Shown here one piece after another: positions 1-27,695 of a stretch of 42,896 nucleotides of DNA (position 1 is the first letter of the stretch; each line of letters begins with the position of its first letter). Under the pieces are notes generated by a model that was given only the letters and a program-made list of their open reading frames with translations, searched no databases and was not told the DNA's origin. A program made the position numbers and the translations under genes. The DNA comes from Rubellimicrobium sp. (GTDB taxonomy: Bacteria; Pseudomonadota; Alphaproteobacteria; Rhodobacterales; Rhodobacteraceae). The stretch is taken from the NCBI GenBank assembly GCA_020832515.1, contig JAFIEN010000001.1, forward strand, positions 1-42,896. The letters are read 5' to 3'.

Positions 1-2267
1 GGTGTGGGGGGTTCGGGGAGCGAAACCCTATCGAGGTTTCGGCCCTGCGCGCCCGGGTGCCGGCACGGTCCGCATGCGGCCCTGGGGGGGTTGAGTGCCC
101 CCCCGCCTGCGGCTCCCCCCCGAGGATATTTGCAAACAAAAGAAGCGGCAGGATCTTTCCCTCTTTCCTCGGGGGAGGGCGGCAGGGAAGAGCCCGGCCC
201 GCCAGTAACCCGCCGGTGACCGTCGCGGAAATGACGGCCGGGGCCTGCCTCTTCCGGCTGCTTCTTTTGTTTGCAAATATCCTCGGGGGGACGGCGCGGA
301 ACGCGCCGCGGGGGGCCCCCAGCCCCCCGGCGCCGCCGGCCCCGTGGGCTCCCACTGCCGCCCCATACCCCGCTGGTCCAACCCGCGCGGCCCGGCCGCC
401 ACGGCCAGACCTCGATCACGAAGAACCGCTGCAGGGCGCGGGTGAAGACCTCCCAGACGGGGCGCTCGCCGACATCGATCTTTCCGAAGCCCGACAGATT
501 GGCCGCAAGCCGCCCCTCGGGATTGGGCAGTTCGACCAGCACCCGCACCACGAGACCGAAATCCACCGGTTCGGCCCGGGGTGCGATGGCGCTGACCGTG
601 CCGGGGATCGGGTCGTGCGGCGCGCTCCACAGGCGCAGTTCGACCGGTGCCCCGAGGGTGACCTCCTGGATCGCGATCTCGGGGATCATCAGCGCGGCCA
701 GCACGGTCCGGTTGTCCTCGATCTCGGCGAACAGCCCGCCGGCGGCAAGGCTGTGGCCCACGGGGACCTCGTGCATCGGGCTGACGATCTGGCCCGCGAC
801 GGGGGCGCGGATATAGGTGTAGTCCAGCATCCGCTCGGCGAAGGCCAGTTCCTCGGCATTGCGGGCGATGGTGGCCTCGATCATCGCGATCTCGCTGTCC
901 AGCGGGTCGGCCTGCACCAGCGCAAGCTGGGCTGCGGCCTGGTCGCGGGCGGCTTCGGCCAGAAGTGCTGCGCTGCGCGCATCCGAGACCACGGTGAAGG
1001 GGATCGTGCCGCTTTCGAACAATGTCTCCTGCCGGGCCAGATCCTGCCTGCGCATGTCGAGTTGCACCTCGGCCGCCGCCAGTGACTGTGCGGCCAGCGC
1101 GATCTCTTCGGGGCGGGGTCCGGCCAGAAGCGTGTCGAGCTGGGCCTGAAGCCGCGCGCCATCGGCCTGCAGGACCGCCACGTCGCGGCTCTGGTTCCAG
1201 TTCGACAGCACCGCCATCACCGTGCCCGCCTCGACCCGGTCGCCCTCGGAGACATGGAGTTCGGTGATCTCGCCGCTGGTGCGGGCGCGGACCTCGGCCC
1301 GGTCGAGCGGCTGGATGGTGAAATCGCCGCCCACCTCGAAGCGGTAGGGCTGGAAGGCCAGCCAGACGAGCCCGCCCAGGATTGCCAGCCAGACAAGCCG
1401 CACCACCCATTTGCGTGCCGGGCTCTGACGCGCGGCCTGCGATTGCAGCACGCGGTCGAGATCGTCCATGCCCCCCTGCCGCTTGCCCGCGCCGGTGCGC
1501 TCGATCCGGGGGCTGCGCTGGATCCGGGGGCCGGGCTCGGTGTCGGGCAGGACCTGATCGGGCGGCGCCGGCCGGCCTGCGGGCAGGATCGCCGGGCCGG
1601 CGCTCAGCAGATCGTCCAGCGGATCCTCCGGCCCGTCTGCGGGGATGTCCCCTGCGATCCCGGCCCCGTCGATCCCGGCCCCTGCATCGGCCGTCTGGCC
1701 CACCATCCCCTGGCCCACCATCCCCTGGCCCCCCGGTGCCCCGGCCGGCTCTCCGCGATCCCCGCCGGGCGGGGCGTCCTCGTCCTCGAGAGCGGCCAGG
1801 AGGCTGTCGAGCCCGTCTCCGGTCCGGTGGTCGGGGCCTGTGCCTGCGGTCAGAGCCGGGTGCAGGATGTCGTCCAGCGTGTCGCCGCCAGCGGATGCGT
1901 CGGTCCGGGCCTGACGGCGCGGTCCCGGACGGCCGCGGCGGGGGCGGTGTGCGGCCTCTCCGTCGGCGGTGGCCTGTTGTCCCTGCCCCTGTTGCCCCTG
2001 GCGGATATCGGCCAGCTGCACCACCCGGGCCCTCGCCGCCTCTTCGCCCGGATCGGGATCCTCCGCGTCGAGGAGCGCGCACAGAGCAGCGTCGAGTGTC
2101 CCGGCATCGGGATCCCCGTCGGGCCATGCCGCCGCGTCCCGGGGTGCGGGGGCATCGTCCCGGTCCGGATCGGTCCGCGCGTCGCGCGTATCGCGTGGCG
2201 GATCACCGGTCAGCATCCCGTCTCCCGTCTCTGCAGTCCGCTCCGGTCCGCGCCGCGGTCCTGCCAT
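1..2267 (-). CDS. HlyD-family membrane-fusion / periplasmic adaptor protein; the 3' end is not reached because the frame stays open to the window edge
   Basis: Absent from the ORF track because the frame has no stop inside the window. I translated the minus strand by hand (codon low coordinate = 0 mod 3) from ATG 2267. It reads MAGPRRGPERTAETGDG..., a long acidic/Pro-rich N-terminus. A TM segment KWVVRLVWLAILGGLVWLAF follows at about 1412-1350. HlyD hallmarks come next: EVRARTSGEITELHVSEGDRVEAGTVMAVL (barrel-sandwich), a coiled-coil stretch, YTYIRAPVAGQIV, and ...ALQRFFVIEVWPWR ending near 396. No in-frame minus-strand stop lies between 396 and position 1. Confidence 0.75.
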   Translation of the reverse strand, partial: MAGPRRGPERTAETGDGMLTGDPPRDTRDARTDPDRDDAPAPRDAAAWPDGDPDAGTLDAALCALLDAEDPDPGEEAARARVVQLADIRQGQQGQGQQATADGEAAHRPRRGRPGPRRQARTDASAGGDTLDDILHPALTAGTGPDHRTGDGLDSLLAALEDEDAPPGGDRGEPAGAPGGQGMVGQGMVGQTADAGAGIDGAGIAGDIPADGPEDPLDDLLSAGPAILPAGRPAPPDQVLPDTEPGPRIQRSPRIERTGAGKRQGGMDDLDRVLQSQAARQSPARKWVVRLVWLAILGGLVWLAFQPYRFEVGGDFTIQPLDRAEVRARTSGEITELHVSEGDRVEAGTVMAVLSNWNQSRDVAVLQADGARLQAQLDTLLAGPRPEEIALAAQSLAAAEVQLDMRRQDLARQETLFESGTIPFTVVSDARSAALLAEAARDQAAAQLALVQADPLDSEIAMIEATIARNAEELAFAERMLDYTYIRAPVAGQIVSPMHEVPVGHSLAAGGLFAEIEDNRTVLAALMIPEIAIQEVTLGAPVELRLWSAPHDPIPGTVSAIAPRAEPVDFGLVVRVLVELPNPEGRLAANLSGFGKIDVGERPVWEVFTRALQRFFVIEVWPWRPGRAGWTSGVWGGSGSPRGRRRRGAGGPPRRVPRRPPEDICKQKKQPEEAGPGRHFRDGHRRVTGGPGSSLPPSPEERGKDPAASFVCKYPRGGAAGGGALNPPRAACGPCRHPGAQGRNLDRVSLPEPPT
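116..290. repeat. 31-bp perfect inverted-repeat pair flanking a 113-bp spacer (MITE-like or long-hairpin element)
   Basis: Positions 116-146, ccccccgaggatatttgcaaacaaaagaagc, are the exact reverse complement of 260-290, gcttcttttgtttgcaaatatcctcgggggg. The arms have an AT-rich core in very GC-rich DNA. The spacer carries extra small stems (ccgtc/gacgg at 221-238; ggaagag 187-193 pairing with ctcttcc 249-255). Confidence 0.85.
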
Positions 2268-2305
2268 CCTGCCCGTTTCACCCTGCCTGCCCTCGCTCAC
2301 CCGCG

Positions 2306-3283
2306 TCACCTGCTCCGGCCCTGTCCCGCCTTGCGCCCGCCCCCCGTCCGTCTGCGTCCGCGCCGTCTTTCGAGAAAGCTTAGCAGAAAGACCACGAAAG
2401 CCGCCAGAAGAACGCCGAAGATCACCACACCGACCCCGCGCAGCCGTGCCTCGAGCACGAAGGCGATCGAGAAGACGATCGTCAGCACGATGAAGGCGGT
2501 GAATGCCAGCGAGGCCAGGGCATAAAGCACCAGAAGCCAGAATTCGCTGCGGGGCAGGTCGGCGGGGATCGGGCGGAAGGTCAGGATCATGCCCAGAAGC
2601 CTGAGCCCGTCCTGCCTGAGACGGGGCCGCTCGAGCCAGGCTGCCAGCCAGCGGTAGCCATCGGCGGGAAACAGCGGATTGGCGGTGAAGAGGAAGGACG
2701 ACAGCCCCACCACCGCCAGCGCAAGCCCCACATCGGCGACGCCCGAGCCCGAGCGGCGCAGGATCAGCCAGATCATCAGCCCCGCGACGAACATCCCCAG
2801 CCGGAACAGGAGCGGTGCGGCATAGCAGGCGCGCTGGCCGCGAAAATCGAGTTGCCGGATCGGCCCCTTGAAGAGATAGAACTTCGGGATCACCCCGAAG
2901 GCCAGGCGAAAGCCGAATTCGTCGCTGTCCGCGCCATGGCGCGCCATGGCCAGGCCCTGCGTCGCCTTGCCCAGAAGATTGGCGGTCAGCATCCCGATCA
3001 CCAGGTTCTGCGCGAAGGACAGCGTCAGCGCGATCCGCGTCATATGCGCCTCGAGCCCGAAGACGTTGAACAGCGCGCCATAGCCCGCCACCAGCCCCAG
3101 CGGCAGGATCAGGTGGCGCAGGTGCCGGAGCGGGGCCAGAAGATCGGCCAGCACCCGGAACACCCGGGTCGGGTTGCCGAAACGGATGCTGAGCGGCGGG
3201 CGCCCGCGCCAGGACCCCGGCGGGGGGGCGGGGCCGTCCATCTCGGGATCGTGGAACAGGCCGGGGCGGGGGGTGCCGGTCAT
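2306..3283 (-). CDS. Polytopic membrane protein related to the site-2 protease (M50) family, with the catalytic HExxH motif absent
   Basis: 325-aa ORF with several hydrophobic helices. It keeps the S2P NxxPxxxxDG-type motif (FTANPLFPADGYRWL). No HExxH occurs anywhere; the position where it would be expected reads ATQGLAMARHGADSDEFGF. The stop lies 38 bp upstream of the HlyD-like start, which is the recurrent M50-like plus HlyD gene pairing. Confidence 0.65.
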   Translation of the reverse strand: MTGTPRPGLFHDPEMDGPAPPPGSWRGRPPLSIRFGNPTRVFRVLADLLAPLRHLRHLILPLGLVAGYGALFNVFGLEAHMTRIALTLSFAQNLVIGMLTANLLGKATQGLAMARHGADSDEFGFRLAFGVIPKFYLFKGPIRQLDFRGQRACYAAPLLFRLGMFVAGLMIWLILRRSGSGVADVGLALAVVGLSSFLFTANPLFPADGYRWLAAWLERPRLRQDGLRLLGMILTFRPIPADLPRSEFWLLVLYALASLAFTAFIVLTIVFSIAFVLEARLRGVGVVIFGVLLAAFVVFLLSFLERRRGRRRTGGGRKAGQGRSR

Positions 3284-3602: not shown

Positions 3603-3617
3603 CTGATGGAGGACGCG

Positions 3618-4172
3618 ATGGCCAGGAAGGGCGAAACCGGGGGCGGCGATCCGGCACTGTCAGACGAAGAGCGCAAGGCCCGTCGCCGTGCCAGGCTGCG
3701 GACCCTGACGGGACAGGCGCCGGCCGGGGCCGCCGAAGCCTCAGGCGGGGCCGGTGATGCCGACGTGCTGGCCGCAATGGGTGGCGGAATGGGTGGCGGT
3801 GGAGCGGCGGGCGGGGCGCCCGAGATGCGCCGCAAGGCCGCGGCCCGGGTCTATCGCATGCTGACCAATACCCCGCCCGACGAGACGGGGATGGTCGAGG
3901 ACACCCCCTTCAGCAAGACCGGTGTGGCCCGCCTCATGGAGGGCCTGCGCGAGCGGGCCGCCAACGAGGGCCAGCCCGGCGCAAAGGTGGCGGCGGGCCT
4001 CTTGAACTTCCTCGCTCCGTCCGAGGGCGAGCCCGAGGTCCATGGCGCCAGCCTCGAGCGTCTTCAGCGTGTCGCCCGCATGGCCGGCACCCGGCTGGGT
4101 GGCGGGATGGGGGGTGGCATGGCCGGGCGGCGCCGTGGTGGTCTTGGCGGCGGGGGGCGCGGCGGTTTCTGA
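3618..4172 (+). CDS. Small unknown protein P1, with a conserved helical core and a Gly/Arg-rich C-terminal tail; paralog of 19795-20487
   Basis: This is the in-frame ATG at 3618 within track ORF 3174-4172, preceded by GGAGG 6 nt upstream. The core RVYRMLTNTPPDETGMVEDTPFSKTGVARLMEGLRERAANEGQPGAKVAAGLLNFLAPSEGEPEVHGASLERLQRVARMA aligns at roughly 40-45% identity (by eye) with P2. The tail is GGGMGGGMAGRRRGGLGGGGRGGF. Confidence 0.7.
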   Translation: MARKGETGGGDPALSDEERKARRRARLRTLTGQAPAGAAEASGGAGDADVLAAMGGGMGGGGAAGGAPEMRRKAAARVYRMLTNTPPDETGMVEDTPFSKTGVARLMEGLRERAANEGQPGAKVAAGLLNFLAPSEGEPEVHGASLERLQRVARMAGTRLGGGMGGGMAGRRRGGLGGGGRGGF

Positions 4173-4399
4173 GGGCTGTTGCCCGATCCAGGGCTCTTCG
4201 CCTCCGGTCGTCCTTCATGGGCGCCAGGGAATGTTTCTCGAGTGATGATTTCCGATCCGTGTCTTGCAGTGCTGTGCCTGTCCCGTCATCAATCCGGGCC
4301 CACTGTTGCAGAGTGCCTCTGTCAGGTTGCTGCGCGATGGAGCAGGATGGCGGGGGTGACGGTCCGGGCCGGGACAGGCCCTGACACGGCGGCGGTACA

Positions 4400-7300
4400 G
4401 TGCAGGAGATGGCAGTGACATCCGGTTTAGAATGCCTTGTGCTGGCGCCCGCAGGTCTGCCTGCCGCGCGTCTGGCTGTGGCCGCTGCCCGGGCCGGAGC
4501 GGTTCCTGTCCTGCCGGTCACGCCCGAGGGTATCGACAGCGCCCTGACCGGGGCGGCGGGGGCGGGGCGGTTCGGCCTGTCCCTGTCCGATCCGGCCCTG
4601 CTGGCCCTGCTGGCCGCCCGCGATGACCTGCCGCCCGCGCTGGCGCTGGTCATCGCCCCGCCCCCGGGTCTGGCCGAGGCCCCCGGGGCTCTTTCCGCCC
4701 AGCCCGCCCCCGGCCGGCGCCGTCTGTGCGAGGCGCGGCGCTGTTCGCAGGATGTGCTGGCGCTGGCCCCCCATATCGACGGCTATGTGCTCAAGGGCCA
4801 TGAATGCGGCGGTGTCGTCTCGGAACAGACGGGCTTCGTCCTGTTGCAGGAGTTTCGCCGCAAGACCGGCCTGCCGCTGTTCGTGCAGGGCGGCATCACG
4901 CCGGAAACGGCGGCCGCCGCGCATGTGGGCGGGGCTTCGGGCGTGGTGCTGGACGACCAGATCCTGCTTCTGGCCGAAAGCCCGCTGACGGACGCCCGCC
5001 TGCGCCGCCGGATCGAGGGGTTTTCCGGCAGCGAGACGCTGCAGGTCGAGGAGATGAGCCTCGGCCTCTATCTGCGCGGCCTCGATGCGCCGGGGGGCAA
5101 GCGTGCCGCCGAATTCGCCGTCCGGCTGCGCGAAAACCCTGCCGCGATCCATGACATCGCCGCGGGATTCTCGTGGCAGCCCGGTGCCGTCGCCCCCGCC
5201 GGTCAGGGGCTGGCGCTGGCCGCAGGGCTGGCGCGGCGCTACCGGACGCTGGGCCGGCTTGTCGGCGCGATTGCCCGCGCGGTCGGCACCCTGCCGGGGC
5301 AGGCCGCCTCGCGCGCGCTACTTGCCGAAGGGGCCCCGCTCGCCCAGAGCCTTGGCACGCGCTACCCGATCCTGCAGGGGCCGATGACGCGGGTCAGCGA
5401 CGTGTCGGATTTCTTCCTGCGCGTGGCCGAAGGTGGCGCACTGCCCTTTGCGGCCCTTGCCCTTCTGTCGGGGCCGCAGACTCAGACCCTGCTGGAGCAG
5501 ACCCGCGATCTTCTGGGGGGACGGCCCTGGGGCGTGGGGATGCTGGGCTTTGCCGACACGCGTGTCCTCGGGCCGCAGATGGAGGCGGTGGACAAGGTCC
5601 GCCCCGATTTCGCGATCATCGCGGGCGGGCGCATCAATCAGGTCATGGAGTTCGAGGGCAAGGGCATTCCCGCCTTCGTCCATGCCTCGACCGCAGGCAT
5701 CATCGCCCATTACCTTGACGAAGGGGTGCGGCGCTTCATCCTGGAAGGGCGCGAATGCGGCGGCCATGTCGGGCCGATGTCGAGCTTCACCCTCTGGGGT
5801 GCTGTGGTCGAGGCGCTGAAGACCCATCCCGTGATTCTGCGCGACGGCAAGCGCGTCCAGATCGTGCTGGCGGGCGGCATCCATGACGCGGCCTCGGCCG
5901 CCATGGCCGCGACCGTGGTCGAACCGCTGGCGGCACAGGCCGTGCAGATCGGCGTCCTGATGGGGACGGGATACCTCTTCACGCGCGAGATCGTGGAGTC
6001 CGGCGCCATCGTCCCCGACTATCAGCAGGTGGCACTCGACTGCGCCGAGACGCGCTGCCTTTGGGAAGGGCCCGGCTTCGCCAGCCGCTGCGCCATCACC
6101 CCCATCGTCGAGGAATTCGTCGAGGCCCGCGCCCGGCTCGAGGCAGACGGGGCCGGCGCGCGCGAGATCCGCGAGACGCTGGAGCATTTCTCGCTGGGCC
6201 GGCTGCGCATGGCGACCAAGGGTCTGGCGCGCACGGGGCCCGAGAAGGAACTGACCGAGATCGGCCCCGAGGAACGCCACCAGAAGGGCATGTACATGAT
6301 CGGCCAGGTGGCCGCGCTCCGCCACGAGGTGCGCAGCATCGCCGAATTTCATGCCGATGTCTCGGCGGGGTCGGTCGCGCATCTGCAGGCACTGGAACGG
6401 GCCGAACCGCTGACAGCTGCCGCACCGCCGCCCGCCGATATCGCCATCGTCGGCATGGCCACGCTCCTGCCCGGGGCGGATACGCTGTCCACCTACTGGC
6501 GGCGCATCCTGACCGGGGAAAGCGCCATCCGCGAGATCCCCGAAGACCGCTGGGACATTGCGGGCCATTTCGATGCCGACCGGACGGTGCGCGACAAGGT
6601 CTATTCCCGCTGGGGGGGCTTCCTCGAGGATGTGGCCTTCAATCCGCTTGATTACGGCATCCCGCCCGGCACGATCGACAGCGTCGATCCGATGCAGCTT
6701 CTGGCGCTCGAACTGGTGTCGGACGCGCTGAAGGATGCAGGCCAAGGTGCGCTCGAGGGGGTGGACCGGGCACGGACCTCGGTCGTCTTCGGCTTTTCGG
6801 GCGGCGTGGGCGAGAAGGGCGCGCAATATGTGGCGCGGTCCGAACTGCCCCGCCTTCTGGGCGAGGTGCCCGGGGATGTTCTCTCGCGCCTGCCGGAATG
6901 GACCGAGGACAGTTTCGCCGGCATCCTGCCCAATGTGGCGGCAGGCCGCGTGGCCAACCGGTTCGATCTGGGGGGGTCGAACATGGTGGTGGATGCGGCC
7001 TGCGCCTCGTCGCTTGCCGCCGTCTATGCCGGCGTGATGGAGCTGGAATCGGGCCGGGCCGACACGGTGATCGCAGGCGGCGTGGACACGCTGCAGGCGC
7101 CTTTCGGCTATCTGTGCTTTTCCAAGACGCAGGCGCTGAGCCCGCGCGGCATCTGCAACACCTTCGACAAGAAGGCCGACGGGATCGTCATTTCCGAAGG
7201 GCTGGCGGCGGTGGTGCTCAAGCGGCGGGCCGATGCCGAAGGCGACGGCGACCGGATCTACGGGGTGATCAAGGGGATCGGCGCCTCGTCCGACGGGCGG

Positions 7301-10300
7301 GCGAAGGGGCTGACGGCCCCCCTTCCCGCAGGCCAGAAACGCGCGCTGGAACGCGCCTATGCGCAGGCCCGCTTCACCCCCGACACGGTCGGGCTGTTCG
7401 AGGCGCATGGCACGGGCACGGTGGCGGGCGACCGGGCGGAACTGGAAACCGTCACCGGATCGCTGCGCGCGGCGGGTGCGGGGCCGCGCAACAGTGCCAT
7501 CGGATCGGTCAAGACGCTGATCGGCCATACCAAGGCCAGTGCGGGCATCGCGGGGCTGATCAAGGTGACGCTGGGCCTGCATCACAAGGTGCTGCCGCCC
7601 CATGCGCAGGTCTCCGATCCCAATGCCGTCTTCGAGGATCCCGAGGCGCCGCTGTATCTTGCGCAAAGCCCGCAGCCCTGGGTGCCCGCCCCGGGCCGTC
7701 CGCGCCGGGCAGGCGTCAGTTCCTTCGGCTTCGGGGGGACGAATTTCCATGTGGCGCTTGAGGAACATGCCGATCCGCATGCCGCAGCACCCCCCGCCGA
7801 TCCGGGGGTGGATGCCCTGCCCTTCGCCTTTGCCGCCGACAGCCGGGAGGCGCTGCTGAAACAGGTGGCCCGGCTCGATCCCGCTGCCGCCCCGGGGCTC
7901 AAAGGTCTCGCGCTGAAGGCGCTGGAGGGGGCGGGCGATGGCCCGGTGCGTCTGGCCTTCACCGCCCGCAGCCTTGACGAGGCGGGTGCCAAACTTGCCG
8001 AAGCGCGGGCCTTTCTCGAAGGCGATGCCCCTGCCCCGCCGCCGGGCCTGCATTATACGCAAGCTCCGCGTCTTGCCTCGGGCGGGCGGCTGGCCTTTCT
8101 CTTTCCCGGTCAGGGCTCGCAATATCCGGGCATGGCGCGGCAGGGGACGATGCTGCACCCGGCCATGCTGGCGGCGCTCGAGACCGCCGAGGCGGCGCTG
8201 GCCGATACGCCGACATTCGGGGGCGGTGGCCGGCGTCTGGCCCGGCTGATCTGGCCGGAAGAGGCCTTCACGCCCGAGGCGCGCAAGGCGCAGATGGCTG
8301 CCCTGACCGCGACCGAGGTGGCCCAGCCCGCGCTTGGCGCGATCGGGGCGGGGATGGCGGGGATGCTGGCCCGGCTGGGGGTGGTGCCCGACATGGTGGC
8401 GGGCCACAGCTATGGCGAATTCGTGGCCCTGCATGTGGCCGGTGCCTTCGATCTGGCCACGCTGATCCGCCTCTCCGAGGCGCGGGGCCGGGCCATGGTC
8501 GAGAATGGCGATCCCGACCGTCCCGGCGCGATGGCCGCCGTCGCCGCCGATGCCCAGACGGTGGAAGCCGCCATCGCGGGGCTGGCGGATGTGGTGCTGG
8601 CCAATCGCAACAGCCCGCGCCAGACGGTGATCGCGGGGCCGCGCGCGGCCATCACGCAGGCCATGGAGGCCGTGACGGCGGCGGGGCTGCAGGTCACCGC
8701 CGTGCCCGTCAGCCAGGCCTTCCATTCGCCGCTGATGGCGGCCGCGCGCGGGCAGTTCGACGCGGCCCTGGCGGCCGTCGACTGGCGCGCGACGCGGCTG
8801 CCCGTCTACAGCAACACGTCCGGGGCCGTGCACGAGGCCGATCCCGACGCGCAGCGCGCGGTCATGAGCGCGCATCTGGTCAGCCCGGTGGAATTCACCG
8901 GCATGATCCGGGCGATGGCAGCGGACGGTGCACGGGTCTTTGTCGAGGTCGGCCCGAAATCGGTGCTTTCGGGCCGGGTGCCGGAGATCCTCGGATCCGA
9001 GGCGGATGTCCGGGCCATCGCGCTCGACCGCGCCTCGGGCGATGCGGCGGCCCTTGCCGAGGGGCTGGCGCAGCTTTTCGTCGAAGGCGCGCGGGTCGAT
9101 CTGGCGGGCCTTGTCGCCGGGCTGGCCGAACCCCTGCCCCGCAGCGTCACCCATGCAGGCGCCGATCCGCGCCATCTGTGGCATCTGAACGGCGCCTATG
9201 CCCGCCGCGCCGATGCAGCCCGCCGCGACACGCGCCTGCCCGCTCCATCCACCCGTTCCCCCGGCCTTTCCCCCGGCCTTTCCCCCACCCTTTCCGCCGC
9301 CCCTTCACCCCTGACCACAGGCCCCGACATGCCCCCCCCTCCGGACGGTTCCGCCGTCCCGCCTGCCCTGCCACGCCTGCAAGAGGAGCTCGAATTCATG
9401 GAGATCCACGATCACGACCCGCCGCCCCCGCCCGGTGGCCCGCCCTCGATCCTGGGCGAGTATCACCGGATGATGCAGGAATTCCTGCGGGTGCAGGAAA
9501 ACGTCATGCTGGCCTATCTGGGCGGCAGTCCCCGGACCGCGCAACCGCTTGCTCCGGTGGCTTCCCCGGCGTTCGCCGCGCCCGCGCCCGTGCCGCGCAC
9601 GATACCCGCCTCCGTTGCGGCCCCTGTTGCGGCCCCCGCTGTCGCCCCTGTCGTTCAGGTCCCGACCCCCGCCCCGACGACCCTCGCCCCGACGACCCCC
9701 ACCATGCCCCCCGCACCCGCGCCGGCACCCGTGCCGGCACCTGTGGCAGCGGTCCCCGCCGGTGGCATCGACCTGATGGGGGCCTTCACCACCATCGTCG
9801 CGGAAAAGACCGGCTATCCCGAGGATGCGCTCGATCCCGATCAGGGGATGGAGGCGGATCTGGGCATCGATTCCATCAAGCGGATGGAGATCCTGGGTGC
9901 GGTGCAGAAGATCCTGCCCGAAACGGCCGCCGAGGCGATGCGCGCCGAGATGGACAGGATCGCGGAACTGTCCACGATCCGCGAGATCGTGGGGTTCATC
10001 GAGGGCCATATGGGTGGTGCGCCCACCACCGGATCACAGGCCACCGGACCACAGGCCACCGGAACGGGAGGGGCCGGGACGGGAGACACGCGCCCTTTTG
10101 ATCCGGCCGGGGAAGATCATGCGGTGACGGCCGTTCTTCCCCGGTACATCCAGGTGCCGTTCCATGAACCCGCCGACCATGTGACCGAGACCCTGCCCCA
10201 GGGCCTGCGCGTTCTGGTCACCGAGGCCGAGGACGGGTTTCATGATCACCTGGTCAGGGTGCTGGCCGATGCCGGGGCCGTGCCTGTCATCCTGCCCCGG

Positions 10301-17049: not shown

Positions 17050-18678
17050 ATGACGCGCACGCTTCTGATCGGCCTCGACGGGGCGACCTTTACCGTTCTT
17101 GGCCCCTTCCTTGACGGCACCGCCCCCGAAGGCGTGGTGATGCCCTTCCTCGCCCATCTGATCGAGACGGGCTATTCCGGCACGCTGGCCTCGACCGCCC
17201 ATCCGCTGACGCCCCCGGCCTGGACCTCGGTCATGACGGGGCGCAATCCGGGCCATCACGGCATCTACGATTTCGTCCGCTTCGAGGACATGGGGCACGA
17301 GGTCTTCTTCACCCTTTATGATGCCCGCGACATCCGCGCCGAGACGCTCTGGCAGGTTGCCAGCCGACAGGGGAAAAGTGTCGTCTCGCTGAACTTCCCG
17401 ATGATGGCGCCGCCGCCCGAGATCAACGGCGCGCTGGTGCCCGGGTTCGTGTCGTGGAAGCATCTGCGCCGCAACACCTGGCCCGGCGGGCTTTACGACC
17501 GCATCAAGGCGATCCCCGGCTTCGACCCCAAGGAACTGTCCTGGGATTTCGAGCGCGAGGGCCAGATCGGCGAATTGATGGAGGACGCAGAGCTTCACGC
17601 CTGGGTCGACAAGCACCTGCCGCGCGACCGGCAATGGTTCACCATCGGCCTGACCCTTCTGCAGGAAGACCGGCCCGATCTCTTCGCGCTGATGCTCGAC
17701 GGCACCGACAAGATCCAGCACCAGGCCTGGCACCGGCTGGATCCCGCGCTCTGGACCGGCGACGGCGATGCGGCGGCGCAGGCGGTGCGGCGGCTGGTGG
17801 TGGATTATTTCCGGGGCCTCGACGGCTATCTCAAGGCCCTGCACGAGGCCGCGCCCGAGGCGCAGATGATCATCGTCTCGGACCACGGCTTTGCCGGGGC
17901 CTGGACGGTGGTGCGGATCAACAACTACCTTGAAAGCCTGGGCCATCTGACCTGGCGCGCGAATGACGGCTCCGAAGCCGCACGGCGGCGGGACCTGTCG
18001 AATTTCGCCAATCTCGACTGGAGCCGGACCCAGGCCTTCTGTCCCACGCCCTCGTCGAACGGGATCGTCATCCGCAAGAAATCGCCCGCCTGCCCCGCGG
18101 GCGTGGACCCGGCCGATTACCCCGCCTTCCGCGCCCAGCTGATCGAGGATCTGCTGGCGCTGCGCGACCCCGAAACGGGCAAGCAGGTCATCGCCCGCGT
18201 GATGACGCGCGAAGAGGCCTTCCCCGGACAGGCGATGGACCAGGCCCCCGATCTGACCCTGTTTCTGGCCGATCACGGCTTCGTCTCGGTCAGGAACCGT
18301 GTCCCCCCGGTGGTGACGCGGCCCATACCCATGGGCACCCATCACCCCGACGGCATCTTCGTCATGGCCGGCCCCGGCGTGCGGGCGGCCAAGGGCGCGC
18401 GGCTGTCGATCGTCGATACCACGGCGATCGCGGCCCATAGCATTGGCCTGCCCGTGCCACAGGATTTCGAGGGGAAGGTGCCCGCGGACCTTTACGATCC
18501 AGACTGGCTGGCGCAGCATCCCGTCACCATCGGCCCGGCGACGCTTGCTGTCGCGGGGGCCGGAGAGGGGGCCACAGAGACGGCCAGCGAAACGGCCGGA
18601 ACGCAGGGGACCGAAGAGGATGAGCAGAGGGAAGAGGTGCTCGCCCAGCTTCGCCTGCTTGGCTATATCGAGGACTGA
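17050..18678 (+). CDS. Alkaline-phosphatase superfamily enzyme (type I phosphodiesterase / nucleotide pyrophosphatase-like)
   Basis: 542 aa. The N-terminal metal-site motif is LLIGLDGATFTVL. The nucleophile region is HPLTPPAWTSVMTGRNPGHHGIYDF. A later VSDHGF motif is typical of the AP/NPP fold. Confidence 0.8.
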   Translation: MTRTLLIGLDGATFTVLGPFLDGTAPEGVVMPFLAHLIETGYSGTLASTAHPLTPPAWTSVMTGRNPGHHGIYDFVRFEDMGHEVFFTLYDARDIRAETLWQVASRQGKSVVSLNFPMMAPPPEINGALVPGFVSWKHLRRNTWPGGLYDRIKAIPGFDPKELSWDFEREGQIGELMEDAELHAWVDKHLPRDRQWFTIGLTLLQEDRPDLFALMLDGTDKIQHQAWHRLDPALWTGDGDAAAQAVRRLVVDYFRGLDGYLKALHEAAPEAQMIIVSDHGFAGAWTVVRINNYLESLGHLTWRANDGSEAARRRDLSNFANLDWSRTQAFCPTPSSNGIVIRKKSPACPAGVDPADYPAFRAQLIEDLLALRDPETGKQVIARVMTREEAFPGQAMDQAPDLTLFLADHGFVSVRNRVPPVVTRPIPMGTHHPDGIFVMAGPGVRAAKGARLSIVDTTAIAAHSIGLPVPQDFEGKVPADLYDPDWLAQHPVTIGPATLAVAGAGEGATETASETAGTQGTEEDEQREEVLAQLRLLGYIED

Positions 18679-18702
18679 GGCCGGCCCCCCCGGCATGGTC
18701 CC

Positions 18703-18750
18703 GGCCAAGGTAACGGCCAAGGCCCCGGCCAAGGTCACGGCCAAACCCCC
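18703..18750. repeat. Four tandem copies of a 12-bp unit, GGCCAAGGTAAC / GGCCAAGGCCCC / GGCCAAGGTCAC / GGCCAAACCCCC
   Basis: GGCCAA cores start at 18703, 18715, 18727 and 18739, an exact 12-bp phase. The array lies in the 87-bp gap between the AP/NPP gene and the hydrolase gene. Confidence 0.9.
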
Positions 18751-18765
18751 GCCCCCGGCGCAGCG

Positions 18766-19788
18766 ATGAGCCGGATCACCGTCAACGGCGTCACGCTGAA
18801 CGTGACCGACCTGCCCGCGCGCCGCGCCGAGGCGCTGGTCCGGCGGCGGCTGGGTGCCGAAGGGCTGGCAGAGGAGTTTCCGGGGGGTCTTGGCCGCCTT
18901 GCCCGGCGGATCGGGGCGACGGACACGCCCATCGTGATGATCCACGGCCTCGCCGCCTCGCAGGCCTTCTGGTATGCGGCCGGTGCCCCCTTCCTGACCC
19001 TGCTCGGCCCCTGCCTGCTTTACGACCTGCGCGGGCATGGCAAGAGCGAGACCCCCCCCTCGGGCTATGGTGTCACCACCATGGCCGGGGATCTGGCCGC
19101 GCTAATGGAAGCGAAGGGCATTCATCGCGCCCATGTCGTGGCCCATTCCTTCGGCGGCATGATCGCCATCGCCCATGCGCTGGCCCGACCCGAGACGGTG
19201 GAAAGCCTGACCCTGGTCGATGTGCGGGTGCGCCCGATCCAGCAGAAGATCACCCTGCCCGTCCGCCCGCTGCCGCCTGCAGCCGAACGGCGGCTGGCGG
19301 CCCTTGGCCTCGATCTGGCCGAGGTGGCGCGGCAGGATGACGGGATCGGCTATCTGCGCACCGTCGCCCGGATCGAGGTCGAGGCGGGCGATGATGCCGG
19401 CGCACTGCTGTCCGCACTCTACCAGCATCCGCGCCTCTTCCGGTCACGGCGGGCGGCGGAACGCTGGATCGCGCTGACCGAGAAGGTCAGCCTGATCGCC
19501 GATCTGGACCGCGAGACGATCTTTTCCGCCGCCGACCTGCCACGCCTGACGATGCCGATGCTGGTGATGGCGGGGGGGCAGTCGGCGACCCTGCCTTCGG
19601 CGCGCGAACTGGCCCGGCTCTGCCCGCAGGCGATCTTTCACGAAGTGCCCGGCGTGGGGCATTTCTTCCCGATGTCGCAGCCGCGGCTGTTCCTGCGGCC
19701 CTGCCTGCGGTTCCTGCGGGCGGTCAACACCCCGCCGGGCCCCCCCCCCGCCGCGCGGGGCCGGCCTGAGACCTGGGATCGGACCTGA
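18766..19788 (+). CDS. Alpha/beta-fold hydrolase (candidate thioesterase/esterase of the PKS operon)
   Basis: 340 aa. It has the oxyanion-type IVMIHGLAAS, the nucleophile elbow VVAHSFGGMIA (GxSxG) and a C-terminal PGVGHFFP histidine region. Confidence 0.8.
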   Translation: MSRITVNGVTLNVTDLPARRAEALVRRRLGAEGLAEEFPGGLGRLARRIGATDTPIVMIHGLAASQAFWYAAGAPFLTLLGPCLLYDLRGHGKSETPPSGYGVTTMAGDLAALMEAKGIHRAHVVAHSFGGMIAIAHALARPETVESLTLVDVRVRPIQQKITLPVRPLPPAAERRLAALGLDLAEVARQDDGIGYLRTVARIEVEAGDDAGALLSALYQHPRLFRSRRAAERWIALTEKVSLIADLDRETIFSAADLPRLTMPMLVMAGGQSATLPSARELARLCPQAIFHEVPGVGHFFPMSQPRLFLRPCLRFLRAVNTPPGPPPAARGRPETWDRT

Positions 19789-19794
19789 AGCCGG

Positions 19795-20487
19795 TCAGAA
19801 CCGCCCGAAGCCGCGGCGTCCGGCGGTCCGGGCCCCGCCCGGCCGGCCCCGCATCGCCTCGGCCCGTTTGGCCAGGGTCTGGAGTTTCTCGACGCTGATC
19901 CCGCTTACGGCCGCCTCGCCCTCCTGCGCGGTCAGGAACTGCAGCGCCATGGCCGCAACCCTGGACCCCGGTGCCCCCGGATCCTCGGCGCGCTGGCCCA
20001 GCATCCCCACAAGCTGGGCGACGCCGTAGCGGGTGAAGGGGGTCCCGGGCACCGTCTCGGGATCGGTCGGCGGGATCTGGGTCAGGATGCGATAGACATG
20101 CATCACGATCTGGCGCTGCATCGGCTGCGCGCCCGAGGCGCTGCCGGCGAACTGCATCAGAAGATCGGGAATGCCCTTGCCGGCCTGGGCAAAGGGATCG
20201 CGTCCGGCCGCCTCGTCCACAGGGGGGACAGCTGTGGTGACAGTCGGGGTGACAGCTGTGGTGGGGGCGGGCCTGTCGGGGGTGGCGGCATCCTCGGCAT
20301 CGGGGCTCTGGCTGTCCGGGGATGGCTGGCTGTGCTGGGCCATGATCGCGCCCAGATCGCGCGGGACGGGATCGGCAATCTGCTGACGCCGTGCCTTGAG
20401 CGCATCGAGCCGTGCCTTGCGCTGCTGGAGGCCGCCCGAAGCCGGAAGGGCCTCGTCGGGGGACGTGCCCTGGTCGTCATTTGCCAT
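19795..20487 (-). CDS. Small unknown protein P2, paralog of P1
   Basis: This is the internal ATG at 20487 within track ORF 19795-20595, preceded by GGGGAG 6 nt upstream. The core HVYRILTQIPPTDPETVPGTPFTRYGVAQLVGMLGQRAEDPGAPGSRVAAMALQFLTAQEGEAAVSGISVEKLQTLAKRA aligns with P1. The tail is Gly/Arg-rich, ...RGRPGGARTAGRRGFGRF. Confidence 0.7.
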   Translation of the reverse strand: MANDDQGTSPDEALPASGGLQQRKARLDALKARRQQIADPVPRDLGAIMAQHSQPSPDSQSPDAEDAATPDRPAPTTAVTPTVTTAVPPVDEAAGRDPFAQAGKGIPDLLMQFAGSASGAQPMQRQIVMHVYRILTQIPPTDPETVPGTPFTRYGVAQLVGMLGQRAEDPGAPGSRVAAMALQFLTAQEGEAAVSGISVEKLQTLAKRAEAMRGRPGGARTAGRRGFGRF

Positions 20488-23685: not shown

Positions 23686-24708
23686 TCACTGGGCCAGGAA
23701 GAACCGGGCGATATGCCCGGTCGCGTCGAAATGGGGCGAGACATAGACGTCGTTGCGCTCTTGCCAGCGGGCCGGGTCGATCCCGGGCCAGCCATGCCCG
23801 CCGCCCGAGACGGTGCAGAACTCGACCACCTCGCGGGTGCCGCAGGTCCTGATCTCGCAGGTCGTGTCCTGGGCGGGCTGGGTCACGGACGTGCCCAGCG
23901 TACACTGGTTGCGCTCCTGGAACAGCGCGATCCCGTTCAGGACGCTGGGATAATTGGCCCGGGCCGCCGACATGGTGCCGGCGCCGCCCTGCAGGGGCAC
24001 GTTCTGGTCGTTGCTGCCGTGGATATGCAGCAGGCTGACGCCGGTCGCCCCGATGCAGCGGTCCACCGCCATCGTGCCCGCGACCACGGCAATGGCCGAC
24101 AGCCGCTCGGGCATCTCGCAGGCCAGGCGATAGGCCATCATCCCCCCCGCCGAAAGCCCCGCGGCAAAGACGCGCGAGCGGTCGGCCGGATAGCGGGCCA
24201 GCACTTCATCGAGCATCGCGCCGACAAAGCCCGTGTCATCCACCCCGCTGCGCGCGGCAAAGCCCACGGGCGAGGCCCCCCCGGTATTCCACGATCCCCG
24301 GACCCCCTCGGGCACCACGAGCAGGAAGCCGTATCGGTCGGCCATCTCGACCAGGCCGGTGCGCGCGGCAAAGCTTTGCGGATCGCCGCCGCCGCCGTGA
24401 AAGGCCAGCATCACCGGCAAGGCCCCTGCCCCGCCTGCCGCAGGCTGATGGACGAAATAGCGCCGCGTCTCGCCGCCATGGGGCAGGGTGAAGGCGGTGA
24501 ACTGGCCCGAGGCCTCGGGCGCGGCCGAAATCGACTGGCGCTGGCGCTGGGTCTGCTGGCCGCCCTGCCGGTCGCGGTCCGCCCCCATCACCTCGCGCCA
24601 TTCGCGCACCGGGTTCACGCCGCCCGGCCCCCCCACGCAGGCCACGACCCAGACCGAAGCCGACAGCACAAGCCCCAGAACCAGAAGCGTGCGGGCGCGT
24701 TTTCTCAT
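23686..24708 (-). CDS. Secreted lipoprotein esterase of the PHB-depolymerase / LpqC (feruloyl-esterase-like) family
   Basis: 340 aa. The signal peptide has a lipobox (LVLSASVWVVAC). Family motifs are PVMLAFHGGGGD, VDDTGFV and the nucleophile elbow AAGLSAGGMMAY. The start overlaps the upstream stop as ATGA (24705-24708). Confidence 0.78.
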   Translation of the reverse strand: MRKRARTLLVLGLVLSASVWVVACVGGPGGVNPVREWREVMGADRDRQGGQQTQRQRQSISAAPEASGQFTAFTLPHGGETRRYFVHQPAAGGAGALPVMLAFHGGGGDPQSFAARTGLVEMADRYGFLLVVPEGVRGSWNTGGASPVGFAARSGVDDTGFVGAMLDEVLARYPADRSRVFAAGLSAGGMMAYRLACEMPERLSAIAVVAGTMAVDRCIGATGVSLLHIHGSNDQNVPLQGGAGTMSAARANYPSVLNGIALFQERNQCTLGTSVTQPAQDTTCEIRTCGTREVVEFCTVSGGGHGWPGIDPARWQERNDVYVSPHFDATGHIARFFLAQ

Positions 24709-26225
24709 GATGCGGGGTTCCTCTGCGATCCAAGCCAGATTTCCAGACCGCCATCGGGATTGGGGACATAGTCGAAGCGGCCGTCCTCGAGATCGACGCC
24801 GACGAAAGGACCGAAGGGATTGACGAACCCGGCGGCCAGCCCGTGCGGCGTCGATTGCAGGGTCCTTATGCCATAATTGTAGGGGTTACCGAAACCTTGC
24901 GTGGTGACGGGCAGCCAGTTTTCGCCGTCGCGGCTGCGATAAAGCTCGGCCCCGCCGCGCATCGCGATGAAGTTTTCCATCCCGTAGCGGTCGAGCATGG
25001 CGGTGAAGGGCTGCGGCCAGTTGGTCCGTTCCGAATAGCGCAGCATCACCGACCAGTCGAAAGTGCCAAGGTAGAGCCAGCCGTCATGGCTTTCCATCTG
25101 CCAGAAATAGCCGTTGAACGGATTGTCGAAACCCGGCGCAAAGCCCGAAAGCGGGATCTTCATGCCCTCGGGCGTGTCGCGCTGGTAGCCCACGACCAGA
25201 TCCCACTGACCGTCCTCGTAGATGCGGATCAGTTCGGGGCCGGCGGGGCCGATCCTGTTCACCCGGTCGATCCCGCCGTGCTGGATGCCGCTGCCCGCAT
25301 AGAGCAGGCCGTCATGGGCGGCGAAGGAGGCGACCCCCTGATTGAGCGCGCCCCGCCATGCGCCGTTCACGATCACGCGCTCCCAGTCGTAGGGGGCGCG
25401 GCCCTCGGCCCGGGTGCGCCAGATCTGGTAGCCCCGCCCGTTGCCGGTGCCCGCGTAAAGATAGTCACCGCAGGCCGCCATCTCGAAGACGCCCAGATTC
25501 TCGCGATCGCCGAAGCCGGGCGTGTTGACCAGTTCCCAGTTGCCGCCCGCGGGATCGCTTGACGCATAGACGATGGCATTGCCCGCGATATTGGGATTGC
25601 CGCCCGCCGTGCCGGTGGGGCTGGTGAAGAGGCGGCCCTTGAAGGGCACCAGAAGCCGCAGGGTGATGATCGACCGGTCGAAACCGGCAGGCATCGGGAT
25701 CTCGTCGAACTGCGCCCCGTCGGCCGAGCGCAGGATGCGTGTCCCCTGCCCGCGCGCGGGCGTGTAGGTGGCGACGTAAAGGTGGTCATGGGCGTCCGAG
25801 GCGCCCTTGAAGACGCACATCCCCCGATAGCCCAGTTCGCGCGGAAGCTGTTCGCCCTCGGCATCGATCCAGGGCGCCTGCGACACGAGGCTCCAGCCCG
25901 CGTTTTCCACCCCCGGCCGGGCGGCGGCCGGATCGAAGCTCCAGATCTGGGCGCGCATGTCCTGGTCATAGACGCGCTCGGGGCATTTGACGGGCCAGCG
26001 GTCCAGCTTCTTGGCGATCTTCGAAACCTTGAACAGGCACAGGTTGCTGCGTGTCGTGCCCACGATCAGCCGGTCGCGGAACCAGCCCATGGAATGGGGA
26101 TAGGAATTGAGCGCATCGCCGAAACCGTTCCGCGCGATCCGGGTGAAATCGCGCGGCCCAAGGCCCCGGCCCGGCCCCCAGCGCCCGTCCTGGCCGGCCG
26201 CCCCGACGCGGAACTGCCCGGTCAT
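24705..26225 (-). CDS. Unknown 506-aa protein, beta-propeller-like repeat architecture
   Basis: It contains repeated Gly/Trp/Tyr-rich strands (YLYAGTGNGRGYQIWR, LLYAGSGIQHGG, WLYLGTFDW, ELYRSRDGENW). I see no signal peptide. Its C-terminal part is paralogous to ORF 20592-21701. Confidence 0.6.
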   Translation of the reverse strand: MTGQFRVGAAGQDGRWGPGRGLGPRDFTRIARNGFGDALNSYPHSMGWFRDRLIVGTTRSNLCLFKVSKIAKKLDRWPVKCPERVYDQDMRAQIWSFDPAAARPGVENAGWSLVSQAPWIDAEGEQLPRELGYRGMCVFKGASDAHDHLYVATYTPARGQGTRILRSADGAQFDEIPMPAGFDRSIITLRLLVPFKGRLFTSPTGTAGGNPNIAGNAIVYASSDPAGGNWELVNTPGFGDRENLGVFEMAACGDYLYAGTGNGRGYQIWRTRAEGRAPYDWERVIVNGAWRGALNQGVASFAAHDGLLYAGSGIQHGGIDRVNRIGPAGPELIRIYEDGQWDLVVGYQRDTPEGMKIPLSGFAPGFDNPFNGYFWQMESHDGWLYLGTFDWSVMLRYSERTNWPQPFTAMLDRYGMENFIAMRGGAELYRSRDGENWLPVTTQGFGNPYNYGIRTLQSTPHGLAAGFVNPFGPFVGVDLEDGRFDYVPNPDGGLEIWLGSQRNPAS

Positions 26226-26244: not shown

Positions 26245-26583
26245 TCACAGCAGGTCTTCCTGTTGCAGGGGCTGGGCAGGCTTCAGCCGGGCAAGTTCCT
26301 CCAGCACCTCCTCGAGCATGATCTCGAGCACATCGGCCCAGCGTTCGAGCTTGAGCCGGTATTGCTGGTCGTCCTCGCTTTCGGCCGGAAGCGCGGTGCC
26401 GTCGGCGGCGAACTGGCGGCGCGTCTCCTCATAGACCTCGCGGGCGAGATAGGCGAGTTTCGGATCGGCGAGGATGCGGAAGTAGTTCAGGCCGCGCGGC
26501 TCTCCTCCCTCCATCTCGAGGCCGAATTCGGCGCCCAGGGCCTCGCGGTGGTCGGGCGCGCGCAGCGGATGCAGGACAGCCAT
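26245..26583 (-). CDS. Small acidic hypothetical protein (112 aa)
   Basis: ATG 26583 lies 2 nt after the ST3 stop; the track lists a TTG start at 26589. The sequence looks helical and Glu/Leu-rich (WADVLEIMLEEVLEELARL). I recognise no family. Confidence 0.5.
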   Translation of the reverse strand: MAVLHPLRAPDHREALGAEFGLEMEGGEPRGLNYFRILADPKLAYLAREVYEETRRQFAADGTALPAESEDDQQYRLKLERWADVLEIMLEEVLEELARLKPAQPLQQEDLL

Positions 26584-26585
26584 CG

Positions 26586-27695
26586 TCAATACCCCAAGGC
26601 CCGGGCCAGATCCTGGACCCGGGGGTGCAGCGCCTCGCCATCCTTGCGCCAGGGCAGCGGCCGGTCGAGCGGCGGGATCGGGATGGGGTCCTCGCGCAGT
26701 TCGGGCGAGTTGAGGAAGTTCACGTCATTGCCCAGCGGCGCATTGGCCGGACCCATGCAGGAATAGGGCGACCGTTCGGGGTGGCGCATCTCGTCGATCG
26801 CCTCGGGCGCGTCGGAGATGCCCAGCCAGCGGCAGAGTTCCGGCAGATGGGTCTCCAGATCGCCGAGGAACGCCTCGCCGCGCAGCGTCACGAACTGCTC
26901 GTCGGGCAGGGTGTCGAGGAAGCGCAGGATCTGCACCTGCGCATTGTACCAGGCGATCTGCGGCTCGAGGGCCGCGACCTCGCCGCGCAGGTCGATGGAA
27001 TTGAGCGCCATCAGCACGCCGATCCCGCCCTTGGTCTTGAAGACCGATTGCCCCTGCGGGATCGGGTGGCGCACCAGATGGATGAACTTCGCCCCCGGAA
27101 AGGTCTCGAGCATCCGGTCGAGATAGGCGCGCTGGCGCAGCACGCCGGGGCTTTTCTCGACGATGCGGCGGGGGGCGACGGCCTCGGCCAGTTCGGTGAA
27201 GACCTCGCCCGAGGTCATGAGTTCGCGGTTCTTGAGCCAGCGTTCGGCCATGCGGATCGCCTCGGGCGTCTGCTCGCCGGCATGGATCTGGGCCACCGCC
27301 CGCAGAAGGCCGTGGCGCATCGACGCCCAGAAGGGCGATTTCTTGGTGCCGGCCGGCGTCAGCCCGGTGTTGAACTCCTCGATCAGGTCGCACTGGAACA
27401 GGTTCAGCTCGGGCATCCCGTAAAGTTCGGGATGCTGGCCGATCATCGCCGCCACAAGCGACGAGAAGGACCGCGGCGCGGCCAGGATGAAGACCGGATC
27501 GGCATGCAGCGGGGCGCGGTCGGGAACGGGGGCGGGCCGCAGCGCGGGTTCGGGCGCGGGAAAGGGGCCGGGGGCCTGATCGGCCTCGACCTTGATCTCG
27601 GTCTTGGGCCCGGTCTTGGTCCTGGGCTTGGCCTTTGCCTTCGGCTTGGCCTTGGTCTTGGTCTTGCGCCCGGAGGGCGGGGTCGTGTCGGTCAT
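26586..27695 (-). CDS. Sulfotransferase-family protein ST3 with a Lys/Ala/Pro/Thr-rich N-terminal extension
   Basis: The start is taken at ATG 27695, which overlaps the upstream stop as ATGA (27692-27695); the track ORF extends to 27782. The N-terminus is MTDTTPPSGRKTKTKAKPKAKAKPRTKTGPKTEIK. Catalytic-domain motifs are PVFILAAPRSFSSLV, KFIHLVRHP and TLRGEAFLGDLETHLPELCRWLGI. Confidence 0.7.
   Translation of the reverse strand: MTDTTPPSGRKTKTKAKPKAKAKPRTKTGPKTEIKVEADQAPGPFPAPEPALRPAPVPDRAPLHADPVFILAAPRSFSSLVAAMIGQHPELYGMPELNLFQCDLIEEFNTGLTPAGTKKSPFWASMRHGLLRAVAQIHAGEQTPEAIRMAERWLKNRELMTSGEVFTELAEAVAPRRIVEKSPGVLRQRAYLDRMLETFPGAKFIHLVRHPIPQGQSVFKTKGGIGVLMALNSIDLRGEVAALEPQIAWYNAQVQILRFLDTLPDEQFVTLRGEAFLGDLETHLPELCRWLGISDAPEAIDEMRHPERSPYSCMGPANAPLGNDVNFLNSPELREDPIPIPPLDRPLPWRKDGEALHPRVQDLARALGY

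Follow-up and report, generated by a model that had tools for sequence, protein, structure and literature searches.

A rare family of small basic proteins encoded within a conserved gene cluster for a PfaA-like polyketide synthase, sulfotransferases and an S2P-like/HlyD protein

What part do two small and mutually similar proteins play in a cluster that encodes a polyketide synthase (PKS) pair, three sulfotransferases and a site-2 protease (S2P)-like membrane protein together with an HlyD-type adaptor? The question is raised by a contig of Rubellimicrobium sp. (JAFIEN010000001.1), the whole of which, 42.9 kb at about 70% GC, was analysed and is called the window here; the assembly to which it belongs measures 4.18 Mb. 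The two proteins, P1 and P2, belong to a family of small basic proteins that has not been described before, and the P family is a core component of one conserved gene cluster. As to what they do there, we tentatively favour a dedicated non-enzymatic adaptor that would link the PKS and an exporter. The positions of the two genes and of their parts are as follows.

3618..4172, plus strand: P1, 184 aa, with a GGAGG ribosome-binding site at 3609-3613
3663..3710, plus strand: Arg-rich N-terminal helix of P1, residues 16-31, pattern RRxRLxxL, a helix in the AlphaFold2 model (block predicted local distance difference test, pLDDT, 81-85), with R23, L27 and L30 invariant in the 7- and 12-sequence alignments
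3819..4100, plus strand: predicted four-helix core of P1, residues 68-161 (block pLDDT 80-94), which includes the conserved loops GTPF[ST]xxGV and G[AV]S
4101..4169, plus strand: Gly/Arg tail of P1 ending in Phe, residues 162-184, predicted to be disordered
19795..20487, minus strand: P2, 230 aa, paralogous to P1; it ends the sulfotransferase operon
20380..20427, minus strand: N-terminal basic helix of P2, residues 21-36
19849..20118, minus strand: conserved core of P2, residues about 124-213

P1 and P2 are 42% identical over 132 aa (BLASTP, E 2e-25), which confirms an earlier note on this DNA that had called them paralogues sharing a core, and the assembly holds exactly these two P copies. 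Both genes lie in frames with coding-type GC content at third codon positions, and a Shine-Dalgarno-like run, GAGGGGAG, stands about 7 nt upstream of 20487, the start of P2. The longer gene-caller version of P1 (P0006, 230 aa) begins further upstream; P0007, a homologue 88% identical to P1, begins at the Met of P1. The N-terminal basic helix that the earlier note had read in both proteins is EERKARRRARLRTL in P1 and QQRKARLDALKARRQQ in P2, and the AlphaFold2 model of P1 agrees with it. The gene positions were also correctly described: P1 is the first gene before the PKS, separated from PKS1 by 227 bp, and P2 closes the minus-strand operon, its stop 7 bp from the stop of a convergent hydrolase gene. 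In a domain tree, of which the FastTree topology only is considered, P1 and P2 fall in different clades.

No family had been recognised for the two proteins in the earlier note, and the searches bore this out. P1 and P2 had zero matches in Pfam (E <= 1), in NCBIfam and among the sequences of the PDB, and the fold searches ended without a match. An exhaustive hidden Markov model search of 1.84 billion representatives gave 131 family clusters at E <= 0.001, 97 at E <= 1e-10 and 32 at E <= 1e-30; a word-indexed search returned merely 3 and 4 relatives. Ten family proteins were followed by cluster-member look-up, and every one was named 'hypothetical protein'. The ESM Atlas had no usable match for P2, and for the family protein P0009 its best scores of 0.87 all led to unnamed clusters. 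The family is rare in sampled genomes: it was found in 0 of 300 from other genera of the window's taxonomic family, in 0 of 1 from the same genus and in 1 of 150 from the order of genome G301. It was likewise found in 0 of 400 genomes from the class of genome G000 and in 0 of 400 from the class of G301, two samples that possibly consist of identical genomes, so that the total would then be 400 fewer. A tblastn search of 72,556 plasmids with P1 and with the S2P-like protein had zero matches. The metagenome scan was made with a 12-row alignment, A4. A scan of the genome collection with one peptide pattern found one locus, and it was a narrow scan because the P gene of a complete chromosome, G1197, emerged only through a later, different search.

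The genomic context could be read for 12 P genes, namely P1 and P2 of the window, those of loci L004, L013 and L005-L011, and that of G1197. Eleven of the 12 adjoin genes of this same cluster. Eight of them (P1, L004, L005, L007, L008, L009, L010 and G1197) are divergent from the S2P-like gene, seven (P1, L007, L008, L009, L010, L013 and G1197) lie directly upstream of PKS1, and two (P2 and L011) follow the gene of a 369-aa protein and are convergent with a hydrolase gene. On the 3.86-Mb chromosome of G1197 the gene set of window positions 3-29713 stands together in one block; its only P lies between PKS1 and a gene in which S2P-like and HlyD parts are fused. The cluster of G301 is divided between two contigs, each of which includes a P of its own. 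Loci L009 and L011 resemble the window closely (about 70% GC, neighbouring proteins 67-78% identical); L007, L008, L004/L013 and G1197 have 57-64% GC, and their neighbouring proteins are 35-76% identical. The earlier note had left it to be asked whether homologues co-occur with the PKS/sulfotransferase cluster; this is so for 11 of the 12 readable genes, and the family is rare in the genome samples.

The AlphaFold2 model of P1, built on a 94-row alignment, has a helix at 16-31, disorder at 37-63, four helices within 68-161 and a disordered tail. The family layout is the same, with an Arg-rich N-terminal helix, a disordered linker of Gly, Ala and Pro, a four-helix core of about 95 aa and a short basic tail that is often rich in Gly and Arg; the RRxRLxxL pattern also occurs at the N-termini of distant members. 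Of the loops, GTPF[ST]xxGV and G[AV]S are the most conserved two, and they adjoin the N-terminal ends of helices 2 and 4. The most conserved core positions (T96 98%, G102 98%, L110 97%, G143 94%, L149 94%, F98 93%, R113 93% and S145 87%) are largely hydrophobic or Gly, with T96, R113 and S145 in addition. T96 and S145 are placed by the model in the loops right before helices 2 and 4, where DSSP marks short bridges, and these loops are a possible small binding site. Two full P domains stand in tandem in 6 representatives, and P0023 has one and a half; the P domains probably act in pairs because such two-domain forms exist.

The tails vary more. The mean net charge over the last 20 residues of 106 members is +3.7, and that of the core is +4 on average. 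The Gly/Arg tails ending in Phe that the earlier note described are real in P1 and P2, but they do not hold as a rule of the family, as 11 of the 106 members end in F and 2 in W. Since Phe makes up 2.6% of tail residues, the terminal F is enriched, and other loci end in aromatics too (L008 in ...GGAF, L013 in ...QSW, G1197 in ...KARW); the terminal aromatic is a recurrent trait of a subset over several clades and does not define the family. Tails are nearly missing in some members, e.g., P0009 and the L004 copy. The P1 tail has no Ser, Thr or Tyr, the P2 tail has one Thr, and Tyr is found in neither. The distant members P0120-P0127, P0130, P0131 and P0138 have coiled-coil-like stretches (weak Pfam matches below the cut-off), and at the C-terminus they end in an acidic aromatic motif (...DDWFLEFLE, ...DWVDDFVEDR) instead of the basic tail. 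Neither P1 nor P2 has a signal peptide, and P is probably cytoplasmic. A twin-arginine translocation signal was considered for the RR-containing N-terminus and rejected from the sequence: P2 has no uncharged h-region after RR, and the Gly/Ala stretch of P1 contains Asp and Glu.

The genes that surround P1 and P2 in the cluster are the following.

3..2309, minus strand: periplasmic adaptor of the HlyD type, whose acidic N-terminal arm bears 4 LD-like motifs; the open reading frame (ORF) overruns the contig end
2306..3283, minus strand: predicted S2P-fold membrane protein without HExxH (MLTANLL instead, NPLFPADGY retained), divergent from P1
3309..3360, no strand: about 4 tandem copies of the repeat CCGGTATCCGGGG, in the interval from the S2P-like gene to P1
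4400..12646, plus strand: PKS1, PfaA-like, with FabK-like ER, KS, AT, ACP, KR and DH, directly downstream of P1
12643..16530, plus strand: PKS2, with KS, AT and a fused phosphopantetheinyl transferase (PPTase)
17050..18678, plus strand: phosphodiesterase-like enzyme of the alkaline phosphatase (AP) superfamily
18766..19788, plus strand: alpha/beta hydrolase, convergent with P2
20592..21701, minus strand: 369-aa protein, no Pfam family, directly upstream of P2 and a distant paralogue of the 506-aa protein
21698-22672 and 22669-23676, minus strand: two Sulfotransfer_3 genes
23686..24708, minus strand: esterase-like alpha/beta hydrolase
24705..26225, minus strand: 506-aa protein, no Pfam family, kept in every cluster copy seen
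26245..26589, minus strand: ORF for a small acidic protein of 114 aa (net charge -11), also conserved in G1197
26586..27782, minus strand: third Sulfotransfer_3 gene
27692..28582, minus strand: sulfatase-like AP-superfamily protein
28628..29713, minus strand: TPR protein at the cluster edge, also conserved there in G1197

The cluster thus named comprises an S2P-fold protein without HExxH together with the HlyD adaptor, a PfaA-like PKS pair, three sulfotransferases, two AP-superfamily enzymes, two hydrolases and the 369-aa/506-aa paralogues. From its start to P2, the minus-strand operon runs in the order TPR protein, sulfatase-like protein, sulfotransferase, 114-aa acidic ORF, 506-aa protein, esterase, two sulfotransferases, 369-aa protein and P2, and it converges on the plus-strand PKS1, PKS2, phosphodiesterase-like and hydrolase genes. 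The product is expected to be anionic because the cluster encodes three sulfotransferases. Pfam found no ABC transporter or ABC ATPase among the cluster genes of window 3-29713.

The neighbour at 2306-3283 has, judging from its model (pLDDT 88.4; predicted template-modelling score, pTM, 0.81), the membrane-core fold of site-2 proteases. Its top four rows in VIA-align are all of this kind (RseP Z 8.5, MjS2P Z 8.0, SpoIVFB Z 8.0 and 7.5), the next chain has Z 4.8, and Foldseek ranked MjS2P and SpoIVFB first. HExxH is present in 0 of 38 S2P-like homologues and in none of the locus copies, where MLTANLL or a variant stands in the corresponding helix. Across the 38 aligned rows no variation occurs at N202, P203, D208 and G209 of NPLFPADGY, and the strict pattern NP[LIMV][WF]xADGY occurs in 24 of the 38. 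The sole family matches of this protein are weak ones to maturation proteases of ribosomally synthesized and post-translationally modified peptides (RiPPs), i.e., daptide HExxH with E 1.8e-12 and, for the L004 copy, YydH/LiaK with 6e-4. These features are consistent with an intramembrane pseudoprotease used in export, which we regard as possible.

The HlyD protein that the earlier note had mentioned as context is indeed there; Pfam and NCBIfam matches place the gene on the minus strand at 3-2309, where it overlaps the S2P-like gene by 4 bp. The S2P-like and HlyD genes are translationally coupled in the window and in L004, and the two form a single ORF in L007, L009 and G1197, and also in L008 as far as the contig reaches. 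Positions recorded for the S2P-like protein lacking HExxH include L024:113-2509. The N-terminal arm of HlyD, or the linker between S2P and HlyD where these are fused, is acidic, with a net charge of -3 to -85 across loci; it is predicted to be disordered and extends over window 1410-2309 on the minus strand (HlyD residues 1-300) and over HlyD residues 1-440 in L004. The LD-like motif [LFIM][DE]x[LIV][LF] occurs 24 times in 1248 aa of arm from five loci versus 8 times in the remaining proteins of the window (9245 aa); composition-preserving shuffles of the arm gave a mean of 0.38 motifs, and 0 of 1000 reached 24. Examples from the arm are TLDDIL, GLDSLLAAL, PLDDLL and MDDLDRVL. Because of the positive-inside rule, the arm should be cytoplasmic. 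At window 3-415 (minus strand) the HlyD ORF passes the end of its homologues (...WSWLP) and continues to the end of the contig for about 130 further codons, whose coding quality is poor; a lost stop, a frameshift or the assembly edge may be the cause.

An adaptor between PKS and exporter is favoured because P has no enzyme-like signature, is constant in the cluster, is encoded between synthase and exporter, occurs paired or in tandem, and is basic beside an acidic arm and an expected anionic product. P would work as a dimer, on this replicon perhaps of P1 with P2, and would connect the PKS, whose gene is downstream of P, with the S2P-like/HlyD envelope exporter, whose gene faces P. Docking may take place through the basic helix, the tail or the core, and its target could be either the acidic LD-like repeats in the cytoplasmic arm of the exporter or the anionic sulfated product. 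A complex prediction for P1 (alignment A2) and residues 125-300 of the HlyD arm scored 0.00 against a mark of 0.32, which speaks neither for nor against binding. A bolder form, decidedly unlikely in our estimate, would make P the cytoplasmic client-adaptor of a new exporter type: a dead S2P fused to HlyD would serve as a receptor, as the rhomboid pseudoproteases do, its LD-like arm would recruit P dimers, and P would hand a polysulfated polyketide lipid from synthase to exporter.

Several observations weigh against the adaptor. The P1 model is of moderate quality (mean pLDDT 72.9, pTM 0.51), and the fold searches that followed it matched no known fold and gave no functional lead: Foldseek had nothing in the PDB at E <= 0.001, and the best of 48,161 chains in VIA-align was an L27 domain with Z 4.9, noise level for helical bundles. 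The 12 contexts are not independent because several loci, L009 and L011 among them, are close relatives of the window, and they stand for 131 family representatives, with the distant subfamily unrepresented. One of the 12 P genes, that of L006, has no cluster gene in view; it lies on a 2.7-kb contig beside a GcrA-like gene, and its longest ORF (249-779) opens with a signal-peptide-like hydrophobic stretch, unfit for a cytoplasmic adaptor, although this P may be a secreted variant or a mis-called start. A small basic protein encoded at a divergent promoter also fits a regulator.

That P1 and P2 are cluster-situated nucleic-acid-binding regulators, whose Arg-rich helix and RGG-like tail would control the divergent S2P-like/HlyD and PKS operons, is doubtful but deserves to be taken seriously. 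The whole protein is basic, its gene is at the divergent promoter region in the eight cases listed above, each sub-cluster of the split G301 has one P, and the two-domain forms would suit a dimeric DNA binder. The region upstream of P1 also contains the CCGGTATCCGGGG repeats of 3309-3360 and one promoter-like site at 3549-3578; the scan that gave this site found no terminator-like site. Yet the repeats have no counterpart in six other loci, at most 3 of the 7 regions upstream of P genes have any 8-mer in common, Rfam gave nothing above noise in window 3000-4600, and the RNA folding of the P1-PKS1 spacer was no better than that of shuffles (z 0.15). Pfam (E <= 1) and NCBIfam contain no helix-turn-helix or other DNA-binding family that matches P, and the fold matches to such proteins are at noise level (TetR 2hyt_A with Z 3.5; Rex 5zz7_B with E 7.9). 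A place 50-227 bp upstream of PKS1, first in a very long operon, would also be commoner for a subunit than for a regulator. Less probable is a product-binding chaperone or self-protection protein, in which a pocket of T96, S145 and R113 and the Arg-rich segments would bind sulfate or phosphate of the polyketide lipid and keep it soluble or harmless until export. These three are the best-conserved polar residues, two of them in the bridged loops before helices 2 and 4, and the basic tails would suit the anionic product expected from three sulfotransferases; no ligand-binding family or fold was matched, however, and we consider this account unlikely.

The earlier note had also raised the possibility that P1 and P2 are substrates of the modifying enzymes, i.e., ribosomally made proteins that would be recognised by the S2P-like protein, exported via HlyD and possibly sulfated or lipidated in the manner of RaxX/RaxST. 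The family matches of the S2P-like protein are to RiPP maturation proteases, its nearest solved folds include SpoIVFB bound to the soluble substrate pro-sigmaK, P1 and P2 resemble precursors in being two paralogues with variable tails, and Sulfotransfer_3 is a family that we take to include protein tyrosine sulfotransferases. The claim is nonetheless weakened to something quite improbable. The absence of HExxH weakens cleavage of P by its neighbour, though not its recognition; no ABC transporter or other energiser was seen by Pfam among the cluster genes of the window; the tails have hardly any Ser, Thr or Tyr or are nearly absent, signal peptides are lacking, and the conserved part is a folded domain and not a leader. 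A Tyr in an exposed acidic segment, as in RaxX, was not found: the only Tyr of P1 and two of the three of P2 (Y132, Y154) lie in the conserved core, the Tyr of VYR being in predicted helix 1. Two traits of type I secretion substrates were also missing, with no ABC ATPase in 3-29713 and no RTX repeats in P1 or P2 by Pfam. The caveat in the earlier note that these proteins exceed RiPP precursors in size stands; they are much larger and also more conserved. Its suggestion of a dedicated accessory, scaffold or carrier family survives in part. The dedication to the pathway is upheld by the lack of known relatives, the rarity and the linkage, but a phosphopantetheine-type carrier of the growing or finished chain is highly improbable. 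The four-helix unit is about as large as an ACP, a conserved loop immediately precedes its helix 2, PKS2 has a fused PPTase, and one carrier protein is among the weak Foldseek rows (4h2u_D, E 7). Against this, Pfam at E <= 1 finds no PP-binding (PF00550) in P while the same library finds it in PKS1, among 12 sequences helix 2 is capped by Thr in 8 and by Ser in 4, Thr96 is the position that is nearly invariant, and no carrier protein is in the top 50 VIA rows.

As compared to known systems, the family itself is new, whereas a small cluster accessory protein is of a kind already known. The MbtH-like and stand-alone docking proteins of nonribosomal peptide synthetase and PKS clusters are likewise small non-enzymatic proteins encoded beside a megasynthase gene, often in several paralogous copies. 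P differs from MbtH-like proteins in having no PF03621 match (Pfam E <= 1) and no structural match above the Z of 4.9 already given, in its Arg-rich helix, disordered linker and basic tail, and in being linked as tightly to the S2P-like/HlyD gene as to the PKS. In heterocyst glycolipid export by DevBCA, a PfaA-like synthase is also paired with an HlyD/DevB-family adaptor, and the matches to the DevB model have E 1.5e-10 and 5.6e-15, both below the cut-off; but no DevA or DevC (ABC) genes are seen in the window, an S2P-like membrane domain is in that place, and sulfotransferases are present. We know of no P-like protein in the Dev system. Site-2 proteases with soluble substrates, such as SpoIVFB with pro-sigmaK, share the S2P fold with the divergent neighbour of P, and RiPP HExxH membrane proteases (daptide, YydH/LiaK) are its weak model matches, but the neighbour is without HExxH (38 of 38) and fused or coupled to HlyD. 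Daptide and epipeptide precursors are short, with a conserved leader and a variable modified core; in P the tails are variable and the upstream part is conserved, but this conserved part is the folded domain of about 95 aa, and some members nearly lack a tail. For the arm, an analogy is offered by the LD motifs of eukaryotic paxillin, which are bound by the four-helix FAT domain: these are also acidic LDxLL-type repeats in a disordered arm, GLDSLLAAL of the window arm fits LDxLLxxL, and a small four-helix bundle, P, is encoded next door. There is no homology between the two, and organisms and setting are unrelated (envelope exporter versus focal adhesion).

Some further features of the cluster and the contig were also recorded. 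The unannotated 114-aa acidic ORF, between a sulfotransferase and the 506-aa protein, has no Pfam match and is 48% identical over 85 aa to the G1197 copy; an antisense 'ORF' at 26107-26766 (plus strand) covers its region. The sulfatase-like protein (27692-28582, minus strand) is 76% identical to L013 4282-5121 and to the G1197 region 29413-30252, well above most other cluster proteins (35-59%). The L004 cluster additionally encodes a separate beta-propeller lipoprotein-like protein. Beyond the cluster, window 29873-42894 contains rmlA/D/B/C, a DUF2793 protein, an integrase-like gene, an ABC-2 permease, genes for RepA, ParA and a RepB-like protein, and an RTX-repeat protein interrupted by the contig end, on a plasmid-like backbone. 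The replication genes are at 36.7-40.7 kb, and since they encode a RepA-type initiator, ParA and a RepB-like protein, the contig is probably a plasmid.

The cluster type described here, with a PfaA-like PKS, three sulfotransferases and an S2P-like/HlyD protein, is uncharacterised; those parts of the literature that a search brought up contained no account of a cluster combining PfaA-like PKS, sulfotransferase and HlyD. It recurs in several bacteria and metagenomes of 57-70% GC, with a P protein present each time, and in genome mining clusters of this type can be recognised by the family profile (alignments A2 and A4). Among the matches listed for the literature on site-2 proteases and pseudoproteases, none involved HlyD. 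If the reading of the neighbour of P is true, an S2P fold without the catalytic motif fused to HlyD would be a bacterial intramembrane pseudoprotease in export, and it may be the first such protein to be reported. Should P be an adaptor or a product handler, the family would represent a new accessory class for lipid pathways resembling polyunsaturated fatty acid synthases and would give a handle on how lipids are delivered to the exporter.

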